A stretch of DNA of 64,000 nucleotides from Escherichia coli (GCF_045037415.1 NZ_CP173438.1); one strand, 5' to 3'. Shown: positions 13,194-23,555, counted from the stretch's first letter. Translations and numbers: made by a program. Notes: generated from the sequence alone by a model not told the origin.

Positions 13194-14477
13194 ATGGCTG
13201 ATACAAAAGCAAAACTCACCCTCAACGGGGACACAGCTGTTGAACTGGATGTGCTGAAAGGCACGCTGGGTCAAGATGTTATTGATATCCGTACTCTCGG
13301 TTCAAAAGGTGTGTTCACCTTTGACCCAGGCTTCACTTCAACCGCATCCTGCGAATCTAAAATTACTTTTATTGATGGTGATGAAGGTATTTTGCTGCAC
13401 CGCGGTTTCCCGATCGATCAGCTGGCGACCGATTCTAACTACCTGGAAGTTTGTTACATCCTGCTGAATGGTGAAAAACCGACTCAGGAACAGTATGACG
13501 AATTTAAAACTACGGTGACCCGTCATACCATGATCCACGAGCAGATTACCCGTCTGTTCCATGCTTTCCGTCGCGACTCGCATCCAATGGCAGTCATGTG
13601 TGGTATTACCGGCGCGCTGGCAGCGTTCTATCACGACTCGCTGGATGTTAACAATCCTCGTCATCGTGAAATTGCCGCGTTCCGCCTGCTGTCAAAAATG
13701 CCGACCATGGCCGCGATGTGTTACAAGTATTCCATTGGTCAGCCATTTGTTTACCCGCGCAACGATCTCTCCTACGCCGGTAACTTCCTGAATATGATGT
13801 TCTCCACACCGTGCGAACCGTATGAAGTTAATCCGATTCTGGAACGTGCTATGGACCGTATTCTGATCCTGCACGCTGACCATGAACAGAACGCCTCCAC
13901 CTCCACCGTGCGTACCGCTGGCTCTTCGGGTGCGAACCCGTTTGCCTGTATCGCAGCAGGTATTGCTTCACTGTGGGGACCTGCGCACGGTGGTGCTAAC
14001 GAAGCGGCGCTGAAAATGCTGGAAGAAATCAGCTCCGTTAAACACATTCCGGAATTTGTTCGTCGTGCGAAAGACAAAAATGATTCTTTCCGCCTGATGG
14101 GCTTCGGTCATCGCGTGTACAAAAACTACGACCCGCGCGCCACCGTAATGCGTGAAACCTGCCATGAAGTGCTGAAAGAGCTGGGCACCAAAGATGACCT
14201 GCTGGAAGTGGCTATGGAGCTGGAAAACATCGCGCTGAACGACCCGTACTTTATCGAGAAAAAACTGTACCCGAACGTCGATTTCTACTCTGGTATCATC
14301 CTGAAAGCGATGGGTATTCCGTCTTCTATGTTCACCGTGATCTTCGCTATGGCACGTACGGTTGGCTGGATCGCCCACTGGAGCGAAATGCACAGTGACG
14401 GTATGAAGATTGCCCGTCCGCGTCAGCTGTATACCGGCTACGCGCAGCGTGATTTTAAGTCGGATATTAAGAAGTAA
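13194..14477 (+). CDS. gltA: citrate synthase
   Basis: 427 aa; [22 protein letters not shown]-terminus; GFGHRVY active-site motif. Confidence 0.97.
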
Positions 14478-14492
14478 AAATGACACCGACAA

Positions 14493-14521
14493 AACCCTGC
14501 GTGGACACGCAGGGTTTTTAA
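14493..14521. terminator. Bidirectional intrinsic terminator between gltA and the TRAP operon
   Basis: aaaa-ccctgcgtg-gac-acgcaggg-tttttt: perfect hairpin flanked by A-run and T-run. Confidence 0.75.
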
Positions 14522-14523
14522 TT

Positions 14524-15834
14524 CTACACCAGCAGCAAAGATATTGCCGGAATATAGGTAATGACCAACAGAAGTAAAATAAGACTGATCAGTAATGGCA
14601 CCGCTTCACGCATAAATTGCCCGACAGAAACCTGTACGGTATTACATACCAGCAGCATCACCGTTCCGACAGGTGGTGATAACGTTCCTAACGATAAGTT
14701 GAGGATCATAATGATGCCAAAATGCACCGGATCAATGCCAAAATGAGCCACCACGGGTTTAAGTAATGGGACTAATATCAGCAGAATGGCACTACCTTCA
14801 AGGAACATGCCAAGCACCAGCAGCAATAGATTGATAATCAATAAAAAGACGTATTTATTATCGGTCAGAGAAGTTACAAACTCCGCAACCGTGATACCTG
14901 CCCGCTCAAGGGAAAATATCCAGCCCAGCGCGGCACTCGCCATAATGATTAACATGACCGATGCCGTGGAACGCGCCGTCTCAGAGAGTGCTGTAAATAC
15001 ATGGCTGATTTTCAGTTCGCGATAAATTACAAAACCAATAAACATTACCAATAATACTGCTACCGCTCCGGCTTCCGTTGGCGTAAAGATATTTGCCCGA
15101 ATACCACCGATAACCGCAACAATTAAGAACAGTGCTGGCCAGGCCTGCACCAGCGCCACTGACACTTCTTTCGGTTTTGGCCAGTGTTCGCTGGAAGGTT
15201 TTAAACCGCGACGAATAGCCACCAACCATACGGTAACGATCAACATGGCGGAGCACAGCAGACCTGGCAGGATCCCGGCCATAAACATGGAGCCGATGGA
15301 GACATCCGCCACCAGTCCGTAAAGGATCAGTGCAATACCCGGTGGAATAATTGGTGTAATCAGCGAACCACTTGCCGTTATCGCCGCCGCAAAGCCACGG
15401 GAATAACCTTTCTGTTCCATTTCCGGCACCATCATGCGCGATAACATTGCGGCATCCGCCAGATTTGAGGCACTGACACCGCCCATCATGGTACTGACCA
15501 GAATATTAGCCCCACCCAGGCCACCGCGCATTCTGCCAATCAACACGTTGGCAATTTGCAAAATACGCGCGGCAATACCGGTATAGCTCATTAACGTGCC
15601 TAATAAGATAAAAAACGGAATAGCTAACAGCGAAGGGGTTTGCGTCGTGGCAATCAAACGCTGAATTGCCACCATTAACGGCACATTTGAATAGCAAAGG
15701 AAGTAGGTCAGAATGCCGCAAAACATCGCCAGCCATACCGGCATATTGATAAATAAACAGACGAACATAAGCGGAATGATCATCAGCCAGTTATCCAGCC
15801 AGCTTCCCGCCAGTAATTCACTCAATGCTGTCAT
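14524..15834 (-). CDS. TRAP transporter large permease subunit (DctM family)
   Basis: 436 aa polytopic membrane protein; stop/start overlap with the upstream small permease. Confidence 0.85.
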   Translation of the reverse strand: MTALSELLAGSWLDNWLMIIPLMFVCLFINMPVWLAMFCGILTYFLCYSNVPLMVAIQRLIATTQTPSLLAIPFFILLGTLMSYTGIAARILQIANVLIGRMRGGLGGANILVSTMMGGVSASNLADAAMLSRMMVPEMEQKGYSRGFAAAITASGSLITPIIPPGIALILYGLVADVSIGSMFMAGILPGLLCSAMLIVTVWLVAIRRGLKPSSEHWPKPKEVSVALVQAWPALFLIVAVIGGIRANIFTPTEAGAVAVLLVMFIGFVIYRELKISHVFTALSETARSTASVMLIIMASAALGWIFSLERAGITVAEFVTSLTDNKYVFLLIINLLLLVLGMFLEGSAILLILVPLLKPVVAHFGIDPVHFGIIMILNLSLGTLSPPVGTVMLLVCNTVQVSVGQFMREAVPLLISLILLLLVITYIPAISLLLV

Positions 15835-16295
15835 TATTCACCTTCTTTGCGTGGCGTTTTCTTGATCAGTTGTAAGGCAGTAAAACAGGCGACACCGATA
15901 GCGCCAACCGTGACGGCAATATCGATCCAAAACCAGGATATTTTTAATATTTGCGTGGTTTTAAAGGCTGTCCCGGCAGCTAATTTCCATGCTGACCAGG
16001 CCATGACCACCAGCAAAATAATAGACATCAGAGAGACTAAAAACGCTAATATACGTTGCCCGCGTGAAGTAAGTGCATCGGCTAAAAATGGAATCGATAA
16101 ATGGGTATTATCTCGTTCAGCAACAACCGCACCAAACATGACTACCCAAATCATTAATAAACCGGAAACCTCTTCTGTCCACTGTAATGGCATATGAAAA
16201 CAGTAACGCATTATTACCGCAGCAATGGTCATGATTACCAATATAAAGAGCGTTAATACCGCAGCAACTTCAATCATTTTCCCTAAAAGACGCAT
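15834..16295 (-). CDS. TRAP transporter small permease subunit (DctQ family)
   Basis: ORF-track frame 15834..16331; start placed at ATG 16295 (MRLLGKMIEVAAVL, GAGG Shine-Dalgarno); alternative upstream start at 16331. Confidence 0.7.
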   Translation of the reverse strand: MRLLGKMIEVAAVLTLFILVIMTIAAVIMRYCFHMPLQWTEEVSGLLMIWVVMFGAVVAERDNTHLSIPFLADALTSRGQRILAFLVSLMSIILLVVMAWSAWKLAAGTAFKTTQILKISWFWIDIAVTVGAIGVACFTALQLIKKTPRKEGE

Positions 16296-16354
16296 AAACA
16301 CCTCTGCTCTTAACGGTCGGTGCCGAAACACCGACCAGTCCTTATGCCATGAAG

Positions 16355-17323
16355 TTATTTCAGCTGTTGCTGAATAGTGTCATACAAACCAGGGGTCCAT
16401 TCCGGGAATTGTTGATAGACTTTTAAGGCTTTTTCTTTGAAAGGGGCGACGTCAGGATAGATGATTTCCACGCCCTGCTCCTGCATGGTTTTCAACATTG
16501 TCGCATCCTGCTCAGTGGTAATTTTCTGGCTATATAAACCAGCTTCATACGCTGTCTGGTGAATAATATCTAACTGCGCAGGTGTCAGGGTACTGAAAAA
16601 CGCTTCGCCACCCAACCATAATGATGTATTGGTCAGATAGTTCACCATTGACAGATATTTCGCCTGCTCATGCAGCTTTTGCCCATAGAGAACAGAAACC
16701 GGGTTTTCCACACCATCGATCATCCCCTGAGTCAGCGCCGGATAAACATCTCCCAGCGGCATTGGTGTTGGGGTTGCGCCCATCGCTTCGATAGCTTTAA
16801 TCTGCATGACGTTATTCGGCACGCGGATCTTCATCCCTTTCAAGTCTTCAGGTGTACGAATCGGTTTTTTAGCAATGATCTGCCTGGTACCGTACAGATA
16901 GTTGCTCATGACAATATGCACACCTTTTTCCCGTAGTTTCTGTTCTTTTTGTTTAAACCAGTCACTGGCATAAATCGCAAACAGTTTCTGCGGATCTTCG
17001 GTTAAATAAGGCCCAAACAATATTCCCAAGTCTGCATCGTAGTCAGTTAAAAATCCTACATCACTGATGGTGATAATATTCATCCCCATCAACGCTTGTT
17101 CAGTAATATCTTGTTTAGAACCTAACTGTGAACTTGGGTAAAGTTCGAAAACAATATCTCCATTGCTTTTTTTCTTCACAAGTTCTGCCCAGTGCTTCAC
17201 TACTGTATCCGCTGGCTCGCCGGGGTTACTTTCATAGGCGATTTTGATAGTTACCGGTGCGGCATTCAGCATCGGACTAAATAAAGCTAAAAGAAATAAA
17301 AGTGGTGTCAGTAATTTTTTCAT
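16355..17323 (-). CDS. TRAP transporter substrate-binding protein (DctP family)
   Basis: 322 aa; signal peptide MKKLLTPLLFLLALFSPMLNAAPV; periplasmic binding-protein fold. Confidence 0.85.
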   Translation of the reverse strand: MKKLLTPLLFLLALFSPMLNAAPVTIKIAYESNPGEPADTVVKHWAELVKKKSNGDIVFELYPSSQLGSKQDITEQALMGMNIITISDVGFLTDYDADLGILFGPYLTEDPQKLFAIYASDWFKQKEQKLREKGVHIVMSNYLYGTRQIIAKKPIRTPEDLKGMKIRVPNNVMQIKAIEAMGATPTPMPLGDVYPALTQGMIDGVENPVSVLYGQKLHEQAKYLSMVNYLTNTSLWLGGEAFFSTLTPAQLDIIHQTAYEAGLYSQKITTEQDATMLKTMQEQGVEIIYPDVAPFKEKALKVYQQFPEWTPGLYDTIQQQLK

Positions 17324-17350
17324 TATTATTACCTGTAAGAGCTTTATCGA

Positions 17351-18547
17351 TTAACGGGGATCTGCCCGACAGACTGCACTTTTGCTGTAATCAAATGCTT
17401 TATACGTTAAAACAAACTCCTGATGTTCCAGTCGTTCTGCGGCACAATATTGACCGTTGGCGACATGTTCAATCACCTGCATAATATCGTCTGCAATATC
17501 GTCGAGCGTTGCGCCTTCGCTAATTACACGACCGGCATTAACGTCCATATCGTCAGATAAATGCTCCCACGTCTGCGGGTTATTACACACTTTAATAATA
17601 GGAGCGATCACTGAACCAATAACTGAACCGCGACCTGTGGTAAATAACACCATATGACAGCCAGAGGCGATAAGTTCCAGTGCTTCTGAGGAATCGTTAA
17701 TATTCGGATACCCAAAACGAGGTTCACCATCAGGCACCACGTCCATCAACCAAAGCCCAGGAAAGGGCGTTTGTTGCGTCGGCAAAATAACGCCAGCAAT
17801 CAGCGCATCGCCCGACTTGGTATAAGCCCCAAGGGATTTTTCTTCCTGAGTGGTTAAGCCGCCTTCAGCATTACCGTTAGAAAAACTCCCCAGCCCCATC
17901 AAACTGTAATAACGTTCGGCTTTTGTCATTGCCACTTCGATGGCATCACGTGCCTGCGAACTAGCCGCGCGCGACATCATATGCTGCTCACAACCAAGCA
18001 ACTCACCGCTTTCTTCAAAAATACAGGTAGCCCCTTTCTCCAGCAGTTGGTCAAAGGCACGTCCTACTGCCGGGTTACCCGTGATACCACTGGTGCCATC
18101 GGAGCCACCGCAGATAGTACCAACCACCAGGTCGCTCCAGTTCAGGATACAACGCGGTGTATCCGCAAGCTGTTCCAGCATTTCAGCGACCAACTGCTTA
18201 CCCAGAGTAATGGTGTTGGTCGTGCCTTTATTTTCCTGAATGACCAGCGTATGGCACGGTCGCCCACTTTCTCGTACTTCTTGCTCCAGCCGACGGCGAT
18301 CGAAATTCTCGCACCCCAGCGAAATAATCAGTACACCACCTACGTTGCTATGAGTCGCCAGATTTTTCACCAGCCGATAGCCATAATCGCTGGGATAACA
18401 ACCTGAAAAACCAAAATACTGCACGTCGTGACAAGGAAATCCTTCGGCAATCTTTTTAGCGACATGGCTGGCACACTCCACCATAAAGATTACCTGCACA
18501 GTATTACGAATACCTGGTCGACCATTTTGCCGTACATAACCTTCCAT
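17351..18547 (-). CDS. UxaA-family sugar-acid dehydratase, large subunit
   Basis: 398 aa resembling the C-terminal domain of altronate/galactarate dehydratases; 1-nt stop/start overlap with the SAF-domain partner. Confidence 0.8.
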   Translation of the reverse strand: MEGYVRQNGRPGIRNTVQVIFMVECASHVAKKIAEGFPCHDVQYFGFSGCYPSDYGYRLVKNLATHSNVGGVLIISLGCENFDRRRLEQEVRESGRPCHTLVIQENKGTTNTITLGKQLVAEMLEQLADTPRCILNWSDLVVGTICGGSDGTSGITGNPAVGRAFDQLLEKGATCIFEESGELLGCEQHMMSRAASSQARDAIEVAMTKAERYYSLMGLGSFSNGNAEGGLTTQEEKSLGAYTKSGDALIAGVILPTQQTPFPGLWLMDVVPDGEPRFGYPNINDSSEALELIASGCHMVLFTTGRGSVIGSVIAPIIKVCNNPQTWEHLSDDMDVNAGRVISEGATLDDIADDIMQVIEHVANGQYCAAERLEHQEFVLTYKAFDYSKSAVCRADPR

Positions 18548-18855
18548 TATGCTTTTTCCTCTGACTGATAGCCGGCATCATCATGATGAAAAATGGCGAT
18601 GGCATTGCTGGCAAGATTATGGGAATGCACATGTTCACCCATGGCAATATCGCGAGTGGCGTGTCCGATAATGGCGCCGTATTTCAGAATCGAATCACCA
18701 TTGTTCAGCGCTTCGCAGGCCAGTTTGTGCCCCAGGGTAACGGAACTACAGGCCACCATTTCCCCCTCATCCCACCAGACAATATCGCCACTGGCGATGT
18801 CATTCAGCGCGACTACACAGTTATCTTTGGCATGTAGCTTTAACGCACGTTTGCG
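18547..18855 (-). CDS. UxaA-family dehydratase small subunit (SAF domain)
   Basis: ORF-track frame extends to 18963 and would overlap the SDR gene; start placed at internal Met (MRKRALKLHAKDNCVVAL). Confidence 0.65.
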   Translation of the reverse strand, partial: RKRALKLHAKDNCVVALNDIASGDIVWWDEGEMVACSSVTLGHKLACEALNNGDSILKYGAIIGHATRDIAMGEHVHSHNLASNAIAIFHHDDAGYQSEEKA

Positions 18856-18872
18856 CATAATTCCTCCGTACA

Positions 18873-19628
18873 TCAGAAGCCGATCAATGCGCCGCCATCC
18901 ACCACCAGCACCTGACCACTGACAAACGCCGCTGCGTCTGAAGCCAGATAAACCGCAGCCCAACCGATATCCTCCGGCTTGCCGAATTTTTTCATCGGGG
19001 TACGACCCAGGATTTTGTTACGGCGTTCGTCATCACCTTCAATGGCCTTACGCAACATTGGTGTATCGATCCAGCCTGGCGCAATACCATTGACGCGAAT
19101 CCCATGAACGGCAAGCTCCGTGGTCATACCGCGAATCATGCCGAGATAGGCTGACTTCGCTGCGCTGTAGCCAGTAACCAGAGGCTGCCCAAGAAATGAG
19201 GTCATCGATGCAGTAAAAAGCACACAGCCTTTACCGCGTTGTTTCATATGCGGCACCAGCGCTTTGGTTAACGCAAATGCGCCGACTACGTGAACGTCGA
19301 GTACTGACTCAAAATCACTGACGCTCATCTCTTCAATCGGTTTTTTGCAGTGATTGCCTGCGTTATTGACCAGGATATCGATAGCCCCGTGTTCGCTAAT
19401 AAGCACATCAACTTTTTCCTGCGCGGCTGCGGTATCCCCGACATCCATTTGTATCCAACTGGCCTGCGACCCCAATGTTCCGGCGGTCGCTTGCGCCAGC
19501 TCGCCGTTCAGGTCAGCAATAATGACCTTCGCCCCGCTGACTATCATGCATTTCGCCATTGCCAGCCCCAGCCCACTGGCTGCACCGGTGATCAACGCGG
19601 TTTTGTTATGTAAAGAAAAAGCATTCAT
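18873..19628 (-). CDS. SDR-family NAD(P)-dependent oxidoreductase
   Basis: 251 aa; TGAASGLGLA Rossmann motif, YSAAK catalytic motif. Confidence 0.85.
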   Translation of the reverse strand: MNAFSLHNKTALITGAASGLGLAMAKCMIVSGAKVIIADLNGELAQATAGTLGSQASWIQMDVGDTAAAQEKVDVLISEHGAIDILVNNAGNHCKKPIEEMSVSDFESVLDVHVVGAFALTKALVPHMKQRGKGCVLFTASMTSFLGQPLVTGYSAAKSAYLGMIRGMTTELAVHGIRVNGIAPGWIDTPMLRKAIEGDDERRNKILGRTPMKKFGKPEDIGWAAVYLASDAAAFVSGQVLVVDGGALIGF

Positions 19629-19639
19629 GGTGTCGCTCC

Positions 19640-20653
19640 TTAAAGGTCAATGAGGATTTTGGTATACGCGCCGGGATCACTTGCCCAGTCGCTAAAAGCG
19701 TGATCAGCCTGTTCCAGCGGGTAGTGAGCACTCACCAGATTGCTGACCGGATAACGCCCGGACTCCATCAATGCCAGCACGGCACGAAAATCCGCCACGG
19801 TGGCATTGCGCGAACCACGGATATCCAGTTCTTTCATCAGGAACTGCGCACTCTGATAACTCACTGGCTGTTTGGCGTAACCGACATAAACCACACGACC
19901 GCTAAACGCCACCAACCCTGTAGCCTGTTCAATGGTTTGTTGATTACCCACCGCTTCAATCACCACTTCCGGGCCGCGACCGTCATTTAACAGCACCAGT
20001 TCTGCCGCCACGTCACATTGCTGCGAATTAAGAAAACGTTGCGCACCGCATTCCAGGGCAATGTTCCGCTTGCGATCATCAATATCGATAGCAATTACGC
20101 GCGCCCCCATGGCGGATGCCGCGGCGATAGCGCCAAGGCCAATTACCCCACAACCGATAACTGCGACCCATTCACCCACATTAATTTGCGCACGTCTGGC
20201 CGCATGTAGTCCCACGGCCAGCGGTTCTACCAGCGCTAACTCATCAACACTTAAGGCATTACAGACAATGACTTTATGTGCAGGCATCGTCAGTTGTTGC
20301 GCCATCCCCCCCTGACGTTGCACACCAAGAGTTTGGTTGTTTTTACAGGCGTTAGGACGACCGCTCAGACAGGAGCTGCACACGCCACACTCAGTGCAAG
20401 GCAGAACGACCACCCGGTCACCTGGCTTGATCGCCCCTGCCATATCGCCAGTTGCCAGCACCGTGCCGCCAATTTCATGCCCCGGAATACAGGGATAATT
20501 AACCAGCGGATTTAGTCCCCGCCAGGTATTGAGGTCAGAACCACACAGTCCGACACGCTCAACATTGATTAGCACTTCTCCTTTACCGCAGACAGGTTCG
20601 GGGATATCAACAAATCGCGCCTGACTTCCCTGCTCAATGGTTAATGCCTTCAT
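19640..20653 (-). CDS. Zn-dependent medium-chain alcohol/polyol dehydrogenase
   Basis: 337 aa; catalytic zinc motif (GHEIGG), structural-zinc Cys cluster (CTECGVCSSC), GCGVIGLG NAD motif. Confidence 0.85.
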   Translation of the reverse strand: MKALTIEQGSQARFVDIPEPVCGKGEVLINVERVGLCGSDLNTWRGLNPLVNYPCIPGHEIGGTVLATGDMAGAIKPGDRVVVLPCTECGVCSSCLSGRPNACKNNQTLGVQRQGGMAQQLTMPAHKVIVCNALSVDELALVEPLAVGLHAARRAQINVGEWVAVIGCGVIGLGAIAAASAMGARVIAIDIDDRKRNIALECGAQRFLNSQQCDVAAELVLLNDGRGPEVVIEAVGNQQTIEQATGLVAFSGRVVYVGYAKQPVSYQSAQFLMKELDIRGSRNATVADFRAVLALMESGRYPVSNLVSAHYPLEQADHAFSDWASDPGAYTKILIDL

Positions 20654-20665
20654 TCATTGCTCTCC

Positions 20666-21352
20666 TTACATTACGCCGAAGGTTTCAAAGGCCTGTACCG
20701 TGCTCATGCCATCACTGATGGCTTTGCGCACTTCACTTTCAGTTGCCACTTTTTCCAGGGCCTGGGTAATAACTTCTTTCTCAACAACCTGGGGAATAAT
20801 CAGTAATCCGTCACGATCACCAAACACGATATCGCCCGGATTCACTCGCACGCCGTGAAATTCAATAGGTACGCCGAAGTCGATGACCTTGCCGCGCGGA
20901 CCTTGATCCTGTGCGTAAGTGCCATGACAAAAAGTGGGAAATTTCAATTCAAGAATTTCAGCAGAGTCACGGGCGTAACCATCGAGTACCGCACCTGCTG
21001 CTTTCAGATGCATGGCACGGGTAGACATCAACCCGCCCCACAAGGCATAGCGCAGAGAGCTGCCCGTAGTGATGTAAACATCGTTCTCTTTGAGGGCATC
21101 CAGCGCTTCAAACATGATGCCAAACGGTTTTTCGCCAATCGCCGTCTTACCCGACGTCGATTTGGTTTCGTAAACGTCCGACTCCAGCACCGGCATTGCC
21201 CGGCCTGCCACCACCGTATTCACATCCAGCGGCTTGATTGCCGGAGAAACAAACTGGTGCATATAGCCCAGCGTGTCGAGAATATCGCCAACCACGGCGG
21301 TAAATAGCCGGGTTTTCATCAAAGCAAAAAGTTCGTTATCACTCTTCCACAT
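20666..21352 (-). CDS. RraA-family protein (putative 4-hydroxy-2-oxoacid aldolase / oxaloacetate decarboxylase-like)
   Basis: ORF-track frame 20666..21409; start placed at MWKSDNELFALMK; first gene of the catabolic operon. Confidence 0.7.
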   Translation of the reverse strand: MWKSDNELFALMKTRLFTAVVGDILDTLGYMHQFVSPAIKPLDVNTVVAGRAMPVLESDVYETKSTSGKTAIGEKPFGIMFEALDALKENDVYITTGSSLRYALWGGLMSTRAMHLKAAGAVLDGYARDSAEILELKFPTFCHGTYAQDQGPRGKVIDFGVPIEFHGVRVNPGDIVFGDRDGLLIIPQVVEKEVITQALEKVATESEVRKAISDGMSTVQAFETFGVM

Positions 21353-21409
21353 TATTTTCGTCCTGTAAGCCTGTTTAACAGGTTTACAGGGTAAGGAGAA
21401 AAAGCGCAC

Positions 21410-21615
21410 AATACTGCGAAGGGCGTCACGAAAAAGTTGTGTATTTACTATTTCTTCGCCACTCTTTCACACAATATGTCTTTGATTCGCACTGCATGGC
21501 GGGCGCACAGGCGCAGTAGTCTATTGATAATCAAGGGTTCTGGAGGAAAATATGAAGGATACAGTCCCGGTATTCTGGATTTCACCGACCAGGAAAAAGT
21601 ACAACAGGAGTAAAA
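21410..21615. promoter_or_regulatory. Divergent promoter region between the island-A catabolic operon and its GntR regulator
   Basis: 206-bp spacer between divergently oriented genes; contains a 23-codon uORF with a strong Shine-Dalgarno sequence. Confidence 0.45.
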
Positions 21616-22329
21616 ATGAGTGAGAGTGCGTTATTGACCAGCGTAACGTTATCGTCACAGGTCAAAAATCATATTCTTAATCTGATCGCCGAACAAAAAT
21701 TGACACCGGGGATGCCAGTTCCCAGTGAAGTTCAGCTGATTCAGAAATTGGGTGTCAGTCGGGGTATTGTGCGTGAGGCCTATCGTTCACTTGCCGCCCT
21801 GGGGATTCTGGAAACGCACAGCGGTAAAGTGCCACGAATCAAAAAATTTGATGATGAAGTGCTGCGCGTGGTGTTTGGATTTGCCCTGGCGACCGAACAA
21901 GTGACAACAGAGCAAATTCTTCAAGTACGCCGCTGGCTGGAGTTGGGCGTTGTGGAAGCTGCTGCCCGTAATGGCGAAGAGGAAGATTTTGCTAACCTAC
22001 GGGCTGAAATGGCAAAAATCCGCGAACAGTTCAATGATGTTGAAAGCTTTATCACCCATGATATCCGCTTCCATCAGTTACTTGCCGTTGCCTCAAAAAA
22101 TCCGCTTTTTATGATGTTATTGCAGGCATTACATCAGCAGTTGCGGCAATCCATCCAGGAGGGTTTAAACGCCCAAAGCGATCAGAAAGAGTATGGCAAT
22201 CACATCATCACACTACACCAGAAAATCTGCGATGCTGTGTGTGCCAGGGATGTCGAAACGGCGACTCAAGCCATGAAATCACACTTCGACAGCCCGGTCA
22301 GTGCACTGATCAATAATTCCTCGTCATAA
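21616..22329 (+). CDS. GntR/FadR-family transcriptional regulator
   Basis: 237 aa; N-terminal HTH (SEVQLIQKLGVSRGIVREAYRSL) and helical C-terminal effector domain; AGGAG Shine-Dalgarno. Confidence 0.85.
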   Translation: MSESALLTSVTLSSQVKNHILNLIAEQKLTPGMPVPSEVQLIQKLGVSRGIVREAYRSLAALGILETHSGKVPRIKKFDDEVLRVVFGFALATEQVTTEQILQVRRWLELGVVEAAARNGEEEDFANLRAEMAKIREQFNDVESFITHDIRFHQLLAVASKNPLFMMLLQALHQQLRQSIQEGLNAQSDQKEYGNHIITLHQKICDAVCARDVETATQAMKSHFDSPVSALINNSSS

Positions 22330-22508
22330 GACTTATCTCAGTTCAATCGTTTACTCTTCCCTCTTTTACAAACGAGAGGGAGACAACGGTACTTAATACG
22401 CCCTTTAGCCAAAATCTGTCTTTTTCTTGATTACCGCTATTTTTTCGTTGAGGCGCATTCTTTATGCTGTATCGATACACCAAAGGTAAGTTAAACAGGG
22501 AGTGACGG

Positions 22509-23555
22509 ATGCCAGTGCTACAGTGGGGAATGTTATGTGTTCTGTCACTTCTCCTTTCTATTGGCTTCCTCGCTTTACATCTCCCGGCGGCACTCCTGCT
22601 TGGCCCGATGATCGCGGGGATCATCTTCAGTATGCACGGAGTCACTCTGCAACTTCCCCGCTCCGCTTTTCTCGCTGCCCAAGCCATTCTTGGCTGCATG
22701 ATTGCACAAAACCTCACTGGTTCGATTCTCACCACGCTGGCCGTCAACTGGCCGATCGTGCTTGCGATTTTACTGGTGACGCTGCTTTCCAGCGCCATCG
22801 TGGGTTGGTTATTGGTGCGCTATAGCTCACTGCCTGGGAATACCGGGGCCTGGGGTTCTTCTCCTGGCGGCGCGGCGGCAATGGTCGCAATGGCGCAAGA
22901 TTACGGCGCAGATATTCGCCTGGTGGCGTTTATGCAATATCTGCGAGTGCTGTTCGTCGCAGGAGCCGCTGTTCTGGTCACCCGCATGATGCTGGGCGAT
23001 AACGCTGAAGCGGTTAACCAGCAGATCGTCTGGTTCCCGCCAGTGAGCATTAATCTCCTGCTTACGATTTTGCTCGCGGTCGTTGCCGGTACGGCGGGAT
23101 GCTTGCTACGTCTTCCTTCCGGCACGATGCTCATCCCGATGCTGGCGGGCGCAGTGCTCCAGTCTGGTCAGCTCATCACGATTGAACTCCCGGAATGGCT
23201 GCTGGCGATGGCATATATGGCAATTGGCTGGCGGATTGGTCTTGGTTTCGATAAGCAAATATTACTGCGGGCATTGCGCCCGCTACCGCAAATCCTGCTG
23301 TCGATTTTTGCTCTGCTGGCTATTTGTGCGGGCATGGCGTGGGGGCTGACCCGGTTTATGCATATTGATTTTATGACCGCCTACCTCGCCACCAGCCCCG
23401 GCGGGCTTGATACCGTGGCGGTCATCGCCGCAGGGAGCAATGCCGATATGGCGCTCATCATTGCGATGCAAACCCTGCGCCTGTTCAGTATTTTGCTGAC
23501 GGGGCCTGCCATCGCACGGTTTATTTCAACCTATGCGCCGAAGCGTTCGGCCTAG
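22509..23555 (+). CDS. abrB: AbrB-family inner membrane protein
   Basis: 348 aa polytopic membrane protein; 4-bp convergent overlap with nei. Confidence 0.85.

Follow-up and report, generated by a model that had tools for sequence, protein, structure and literature searches.

The small subunit of a split UxaA/GarD-type dehydratase in Escherichia coli is very probably translated from the ATG at position 18858 and is then 103 aa long, as judged by comparison with related loci. The gene belongs to an accessory sugar-acid operon in the analyzed window, by which we mean the whole stretch of 64,000 nucleotides (GCF_045037415.1, NZ_CP173438.1). The operon is flanked by abrB and gltA on an ST131-like chromosome and shows 100% identity to E. 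coli chromosomes including that of the ST131 strain EC958. Of 5426 complete E. coli genomes, 660 contain the locus (about 12%, ST131 included), each of them as a single copy and in every case on the chromosome. A divergently oriented FadR/GntR-family regulator is followed by genes for an RraA-like protein, a Zn-dependent alcohol dehydrogenase (Zn-ADH), an SDR-family oxidoreductase, the SAF small subunit, the UxaA-type large subunit and the transporter components DctP, DctQ and DctM, in this order. The features are positioned as follows, counted from the first nucleotide of the window:

21616–22329, plus strand: divergent FadR/GntR-family regulator
20666–21352, minus strand: RraA-like protein of the aldolase/decarboxylase family, 228 aa, at the head of the operon
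19640–20653, minus strand: Zn-dependent alcohol dehydrogenase family protein, 337 aa, same operon
18873–19628, minus strand: SDR-family oxidoreductase, 251 aa, stop codon TGA at 18875–18873
18971–18975, minus strand: incidental Shine-Dalgarno-like GGAGG within SDR codons (Pro-Glu-Asp), 7 nt before TTG 18963
18859–18963, minus strand: open N-terminal extension of 35 codons from TTG 18963, non-coding by comparison with E. albertii and with homologues, mostly in an alternative frame of the SDR 3' end
18871–18873, minus strand: alternative in-frame ATG, TGATG overlap with the SDR stop codon, 108-aa form (MYGGI plus the 103 aa)
18863–18867, minus strand: Shine-Dalgarno sequence GGAGG, 4 nt before ATG 18858 and 5 nt past the SDR stop codon
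18547–18858, minus strand: SAF small subunit, 103 aa, ATG 18858–18856, TAA 18549–18547 (RefSeq WP_001295877.1, Pfam SAF)
18545–18549, minus strand: TAATG stop/start overlap of the small and large subunit genes, read from the sequence
17351–18547, minus strand: UxaA-type large subunit, 398 aa (Pfam GD_AH_second and GD_AH_C, PDB GarD 6u7l)
14524–17323, minus strand: TRAP transporter, with DctP at 16355–17323, DctQ at 15834–16295 and DctM at 14524–15834

In Sodalis and Acerihabitans the RraA-like gene, the SDR gene and the split dehydratase are retained, with an MFS transporter instead of the TRAP system. A scan of positions 14300–22600 for promoters and terminators predicted about as many of these elements as in shuffled sequence, and none at the SDR/SAF junction. 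We also considered whether the island corresponds to 'GR 21' of the APEC strain BEN2908 and rejected this, since GR 21 sits between ygiQ and ftsP; it is another TRAP island with other genes, a MtlD-type UxuB homologue and an AllD-like one (PMC12928451).

The large subunit (17351–18547) matches the Pfam families PF04295 (E 2.3e-27) and PF20629 (E 3.1e-75) as well as the structure of GarD (PDB 6u7l, E 2.7e-31), and the small subunit aligns to the N-terminal domain of UxaA (PDB 3k3s, E 5.8e-16). Together the two polypeptides contain the elements of the UxaA/GarD superfamily (COG2721), i.e. the SAF/beta-clip domain, the GD_AH second and C-terminal domains and four cysteines. The latter, Cys25, Cys50, Cys79 and Cys146 of the large subunit, occur without exception in 12 homologues, both split and fused. 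From this conservation we infer that they are the same four cysteines that Watanabe et al. (2019) described as conserved in all UxaA/GarD enzymes but SuyAB and proposed as iron ligands (PMC6336799). TAA at 18549–18547 and ATG at 18547–18545 share one base in the sequence TAATG, where the small subunit gene ends and the large one begins. Both the split UxaA/GarD-type enzyme and the one-nucleotide overlap proposed in the initial annotation, a model's reading of the bare sequence, are therefore real.

Three in-frame start codons are available to the small subunit. The minus-strand ORF extends from TTG 18963 to TAA 18549–18547 with no stop codon in between and comprises 138 aa, the SAF domain being located on residues 47–117 (Pfam PF08666, E 9e-11). 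It shares 91 nt with the 3' end of the SDR gene (18873–19628) if the SDR stop codon is counted, in agreement with the overlap described initially for a frame open from 18963. An internal ATG at 18858–18856 leads to a product of 103 aa. The initial annotation had correctly recognized this short form, with the methionine misplaced to 18855 and the length given as about 102 aa. A third in-frame candidate, ATG 18873–18871, forms a TGATG overlap with the stop codon of the SDR gene; its product would comprise 108 aa. TTG 18963 is preceded by a GGAGG of its own (18975–18971) at a distance of 7 nt, with an anti-Shine-Dalgarno duplex of −9.5 kcal/mol. Neither this motif nor ATG 18873 had been noticed in the initial annotation. 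The presence of both results in a three-way start ambiguity on sequence alone, and on that basis the long form looks more plausible than originally stated.

For ATG 18858 the anti-Shine-Dalgarno duplex likewise amounts to −9.5 kcal/mol, compared with −1.7 kcal/mol for ATG 18873, which has no Shine-Dalgarno sequence. A GGAG-type motif before the equivalent of ATG 18858 is kept in E. albertii, Entomohabitans and Sodalis. The RraA-to-ADH and ADH-to-SDR junctions of the operon are built in a similar way, with spacers of 11–12 nt that contain AAGGAG. At 4 nt, the spacer between GGAGG and ATG 18858 is among the shortest commonly seen.

Translation of the complete 138-aa ORF from TTG 18963 would add a Gly/Arg/Trp-rich extension of 35 residues that overlaps the SDR gene. 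The frame is open and the start codon has a well-placed GGAGG with the duplex energy given above, but in E. albertii an in-frame stop codon occurs inside the extension at the equivalent of 18900, TTG 18963 is changed to CTG and the GGAGG before this codon has disappeared. At 18882–18981 E. albertii differs from the window by 14 substitutions; all of them are silent in the SDR, and 13 change a residue of the extension. Within 18874–18963 there are 10 substitutions, again without exception SDR-silent: nine alter an extension residue, one of these to a stop codon, and the tenth is the exchange of TTG for CTG. The Shine-Dalgarno-like GGAGG before TTG is polymorphic in E. coli itself, where sampled variants carry 18972 G>A, a change that is silent in the SDR. 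In a divergent E. coli lineage five of the six substitutions at 18936–18979 are SDR-silent and change an extension residue. The pattern of substitutions conforms to the SDR frame alone. At the loci of Sodalis ligni, Entomohabitans and a metagenome (L091) the SDR stop codon even lies in the SAF frame, 4–14 codons before the ATG.

A full HMMER scan with the 138-aa ORF over 1.84 billion representatives returned 3951 homologues. Among the best 150 of these we found no alignment of the extension back to 18963; the match begins at query residue 23 or later (at residues 30–45 in 147 cases), and on the target side mostly within the first few residues. The exact 138-aa sequence, the only form with GCGLSGFRRSGVCQWSGAGGGWRR, was absent from a collection of 15 billion proteins. 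The native Met of fused UxaA (PDB 3k3s, E. coli/Shigella) aligns to about residue 38 of the ORF. Close orthologues from E. albertii, Entomohabitans, Sodalis, Acerihabitans and metagenomes are 103–104 aa long, and in all of them M-[RKST]-K-[RK]-[AG]-L forms the N-terminus, aligned with ATG 18858. Since the protein starts of these orthologues are products of gene callers, we read the DNA upstream of each of them.

We further surveyed 82 homologous loci, split and fused. A start codon is located within −6 to +2 codons of the ATG 18858 equivalent in 73 of them. There is no room for a 35-codon extension at 62 loci. At the other 20 (24%) the frame before the equivalent start stays open for 35 codons or more, which is close to chance. 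The expectation for an open frame of this length ahead of a true start is (61/64)^35 = 0.19, and a long open frame in this position is not unusual.

By these comparative data the long form is effectively refuted, and we consider its translation extremely improbable. The ambiguity between 138 and about 102 aa raised in the initial annotation disappeared once homologues were compared; homologues consistently carrying the long extension were not found and the short form stands. The extension is the conserved C-terminus of the SDR (…PEDIGWAAVYLASDAAAFVSGQVLVVDGGALIGF) read in another frame; the final residues of this C-terminus, VVDGGALIGF followed by the stop codon, are kept at all orthologous loci.

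The real ambiguity in the databases is between 103 aa (RefSeq) and 108 aa (older GenBank and JGI records). RefSeq lists the small subunit as WP_001295877.1, 'UxaA family hydrolase', with a 312-nt CDS that begins at ATG 18858, 14 nt past the SDR stop codon. This start was present in every RefSeq/PGAP record of E. coli inspected, four further records included, and at least 1000 RefSeq contigs carry the 103-aa form. On 82 contigs of older GenBank and JGI annotations ATG 18873 serves as start. In Escherichia the small subunit could be made mainly or partly from ATG 18873, by termination-reinitiation at TGATG, as a 108-aa protein with the additional residues MYGGI. ATG 18873 is in frame, forms a canonical TGATG overlap with the SDR stop codon and is conserved in E. 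coli, also in the divergent lineage, in E. fergusonii and in E. whittamii. However, it is ATT in E. albertii and is missing from the orthologues of Entomohabitans, Sodalis, Acerihabitans and metagenomes, whereas ATG 18858 is universal, and the codon has the weak duplex and the RefSeq start against it. If ATG 18873 were the start, the GGAGG of ATG 18858 would fall inside the coding sequence, so that ATG 18858 would be a strong internal start anyway. Initiation at ATG 18873 as the main or a partial source of the subunit therefore seems unlikely to us, and older records with a 108-aa protein probably include five codons too many. Escherichia may make both the 103- and the 108-aa isoform from the two ATGs, and minor initiation at ATG 18873 or TTG 18963 may occur in this E. 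coli lineage.

With ATG 18858 as the very probable start, the GGAGG at 18867–18863 directs translation of the small subunit. The 35 codons back to TTG 18963 are not part of the protein and represent an alternative frame of the conserved SDR C-terminus that by chance has no stop codon in this lineage of E. coli.

The initial annotation had also assumed that the choice of start decides whether SDR and dehydratase are translationally coupled. This no longer holds, as ATG 18858 is still only 14 nt away from the SDR stop codon. With a Shine-Dalgarno sequence and an ATG following the stop codon this closely (at 5 and 14 nt, respectively), SDR-to-SAF coupling is still possible: a ribosome terminating on the SDR gene would cover the initiation region of the small subunit, which makes some coupling plausible, if not required. 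The SDR-to-SAF spacer ranges from 12 to 44 nt in orthologues, and tight coupling of SDR and dehydratase is therefore no conserved feature. A local hairpin was predicted in which CUUCUG (last SDR codon and stop) pairs with CGGAGG, but this junction hairpin is no more stable than shuffled sequence (RNA fold, z = 0.67) and structural support for an obligatory SDR-to-SAF coupling is thus absent.

The situation is different at the junction of the two subunit genes. Each of the five close orthologous loci (E. albertii, divergent E. coli, Entomohabitans, Sodalis and Acerihabitans) likewise has the 1-nt overlap, as TAATG or TGATG; more distant split homologues show small overlaps or gaps. The junction has the stop/start overlap of translationally coupled gene pairs. 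Termination-reinitiation at TAATG is likely and would provide matched amounts of both subunits. Conserved coupling appears to concern the small and large subunit genes, not SDR and dehydratase.

We also assessed which substrate the operon might serve. The DctP binding protein shares 67% identity with PDB 4OVT (Ochrobactrum anthropi Oant_3902, E 1.3e-142) and 42% with PDB 4O8M (Actinobacillus succinogenes), and both entries were also returned when the PDB was searched with a modelled structure of DctP (pLDDT 70). We take the ligands in these two structures to be L-fuconate and L-galactonate. The Zn-ADH is 35% identical to LgoD, the L-galactonate oxidoreductase of E. coli K-12, over 313 aa without gaps. 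In other bacteria TRAP systems specific for L-fuconate/L-galactonate have been reported to adjoin lgoD-uxaB-uxaA genes (PMC5507952). Our best guess for the substrate is an L-galactonate/L-fuconate-type acid.

The split enzyme would then catalyze the dehydration step of a TRAP-fed sugar-acid operon under control of the GntR/FadR regulator. The sugar acid would be taken up by DctPQM and undergo oxidoreduction by Zn-ADH and SDR; the split dehydratase would convert the product to a 2-keto-3-deoxy acid, which the RraA-like protein, as a candidate aldolase, may cleave. Our searches of literature and databases found neither an assigned substrate nor a characterized enzyme for this operon. That ExPEC-type E. 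coli lineages employ a heteromeric UxaA/GarD dehydratase for an L-galactonate/L-fuconate-type acid imported via TRAP is a tentative proposal, which we hold to be possible rather than probable. If true, a split dehydratase with assigned substrate and pathway would constitute a new characterized branch, because only SuyAB has so far been described as heteromeric (PMC6336799).

As to the start codon, the finding is ordinary: position 18858 is already given in RefSeq, split UxaA-type genes are annotated as a matter of routine, and the open frame to 18963 is real but at chance level. It does provide a rule for this locus, where the 138-aa ORF is a side effect of the frame in which the SDR is read. 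The operon, carried by about 12% of the complete genomes of E. coli and also by ST131, would be a reasonable target for substrate discovery.

Among known systems, E. coli altronate dehydratase UxaA has the same three domains (SAF/beta-clip, second and C-terminal) and shares the four cysteines, and its N-terminus (3k3s) aligns within two residues of the start at ATG 18858. UxaA is a fused single chain, whereas the SAF domain described here is a separate polypeptide of 103 aa with its own gene. Identity between the large subunit and fused homologues is only about 30%, as against 50–77% with other split ones. GarD (PDB 6u7l, 3laz) belongs to the same superfamily and is matched by the small subunit with E 5e-4, but is a single chain as well, unlike the two-gene enzyme. 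NCBIfam holds no specific equivalog for either subunit, the GarD model TIGR03248 being the sole match of both. We rejected identity with GarD: the small subunit scores 38 bits and the large subunit 161.9 bits against a cut-off of 730.85 bits, and with scores this far below the cut-off the enzyme is not GarD. The D-arabinonate dehydratase C785_RS13685 and the D-idonate dehydratase resemble the enzyme, by their description, in superfamily and four-cysteine signature, but are single-chain proteins from other gene clusters; the enzymes of that study act on acids of the D-arabinonate, D-altronate, L-fuconate or L-galactonate configuration (PMC6336799). The gene layout is shared by the (R)-sulfolactate sulfo-lyase SuyAB, which likewise consists of a small (SAF) and a large subunit encoded by two genes. 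SuyAB is the only heteromeric member of the superfamily that has been reported (PMC6336799), and our literature searches on split UxaA enzymes found it as the only characterized one. In contrast to SuyAB, which lacks the four conserved cysteines (PMC6336799), the E. coli split enzyme has all four of them, ruling out a SuyAB-type enzyme, and its gene neighborhood points to sugar-acid catabolism rather than to sulfonate metabolism. The E. coli enzyme therefore combines the two-gene layout of SuyAB with the cysteine signature of sugar-acid dehydratases.

The SDR gene contains a sequence that looks like a canonical initiation site and places a GGAGG motif in front of TTG 18963, the rejected long start of the SAF-domain small-subunit ORF:

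18961-18975, minus strand: GGAGG, 7 nt and TTG, lying inside the SDR codons for Pro-Glu-Asp-Ile-Gly-Trp

The Shine-Dalgarno-like GGAGG is polymorphic among E. coli (G>A at 18972) and the GGAGG/TTG site is lost in E. albertii. We therefore regard it as incidental, an example of the mimicry of an initiation site by a conserved protein motif. The mechanical ORF list also over-extended two further genes of the operon:

20666-21409, minus strand: RraA-like gene, start GTG 21409 in the ORF list versus ATG 21352 in RefSeq
15834-16331, minus strand: DctQ, start GTG 16331 in the ORF list versus ATG 16295 in RefSeq

Together with its regulator the operon (14524-22329) is located between abrB and gltA, and only 660 of the 5426 complete genomes of E. 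coli carry it. In E. albertii (L004, 1-3279) the operon is flanked on the regulator side by genes for a fimbrial usher and subunit, not by abrB. Orthologous clusters in Sodalis ligni and Acerihabitans (L002, L003, L005) retain the regulator, the RraA-like protein, the SDR and the split dehydratase. An MFS transporter takes the place of the TRAP system in these clusters, and the Sodalis cluster has no Zn-ADH. Their spacers between the SDR and SAF genes measure 42-44 nt and enclose a short GC-rich inverted repeat.

Variants of both dehydratase genes were encountered, at these positions:

18553-18557: run of five A shortly before the small-subunit stop
L092 2141-3115 (NZ_CM135823.1): large-subunit gene disrupted by ISApl1, equivalent to the middle of 17351-18547

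Several assemblies carry frameshifted small-subunit variants of 112–117 aa (P0001, P0005, P0007), in which reading continues past the TAA and enters a different frame at the start of the large subunit (…HNGRLCTAKWSTRYS). Sequencing errors or pseudogenes could account for them. The IS30-like element ISApl1 interrupts the large-subunit gene in a single clinical urine isolate, E. coli FXCREC145, splitting it so that one part encodes a 225-aa fragment and the other a 'hypothetical protein'.

The TRAP binding protein (16355-17323, minus strand) shares 67% identity with the solved structure 4OVT (Oant_3902) and 42% with 4O8M, and the substrate of the whole operon can probably be named from the ligands bound in these two structures. 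Within the transporter genes DctQ and DctM overlap by one base at 15834 on the minus strand, and the stop/start architecture of this junction matches that of the two dehydratase subunit genes.
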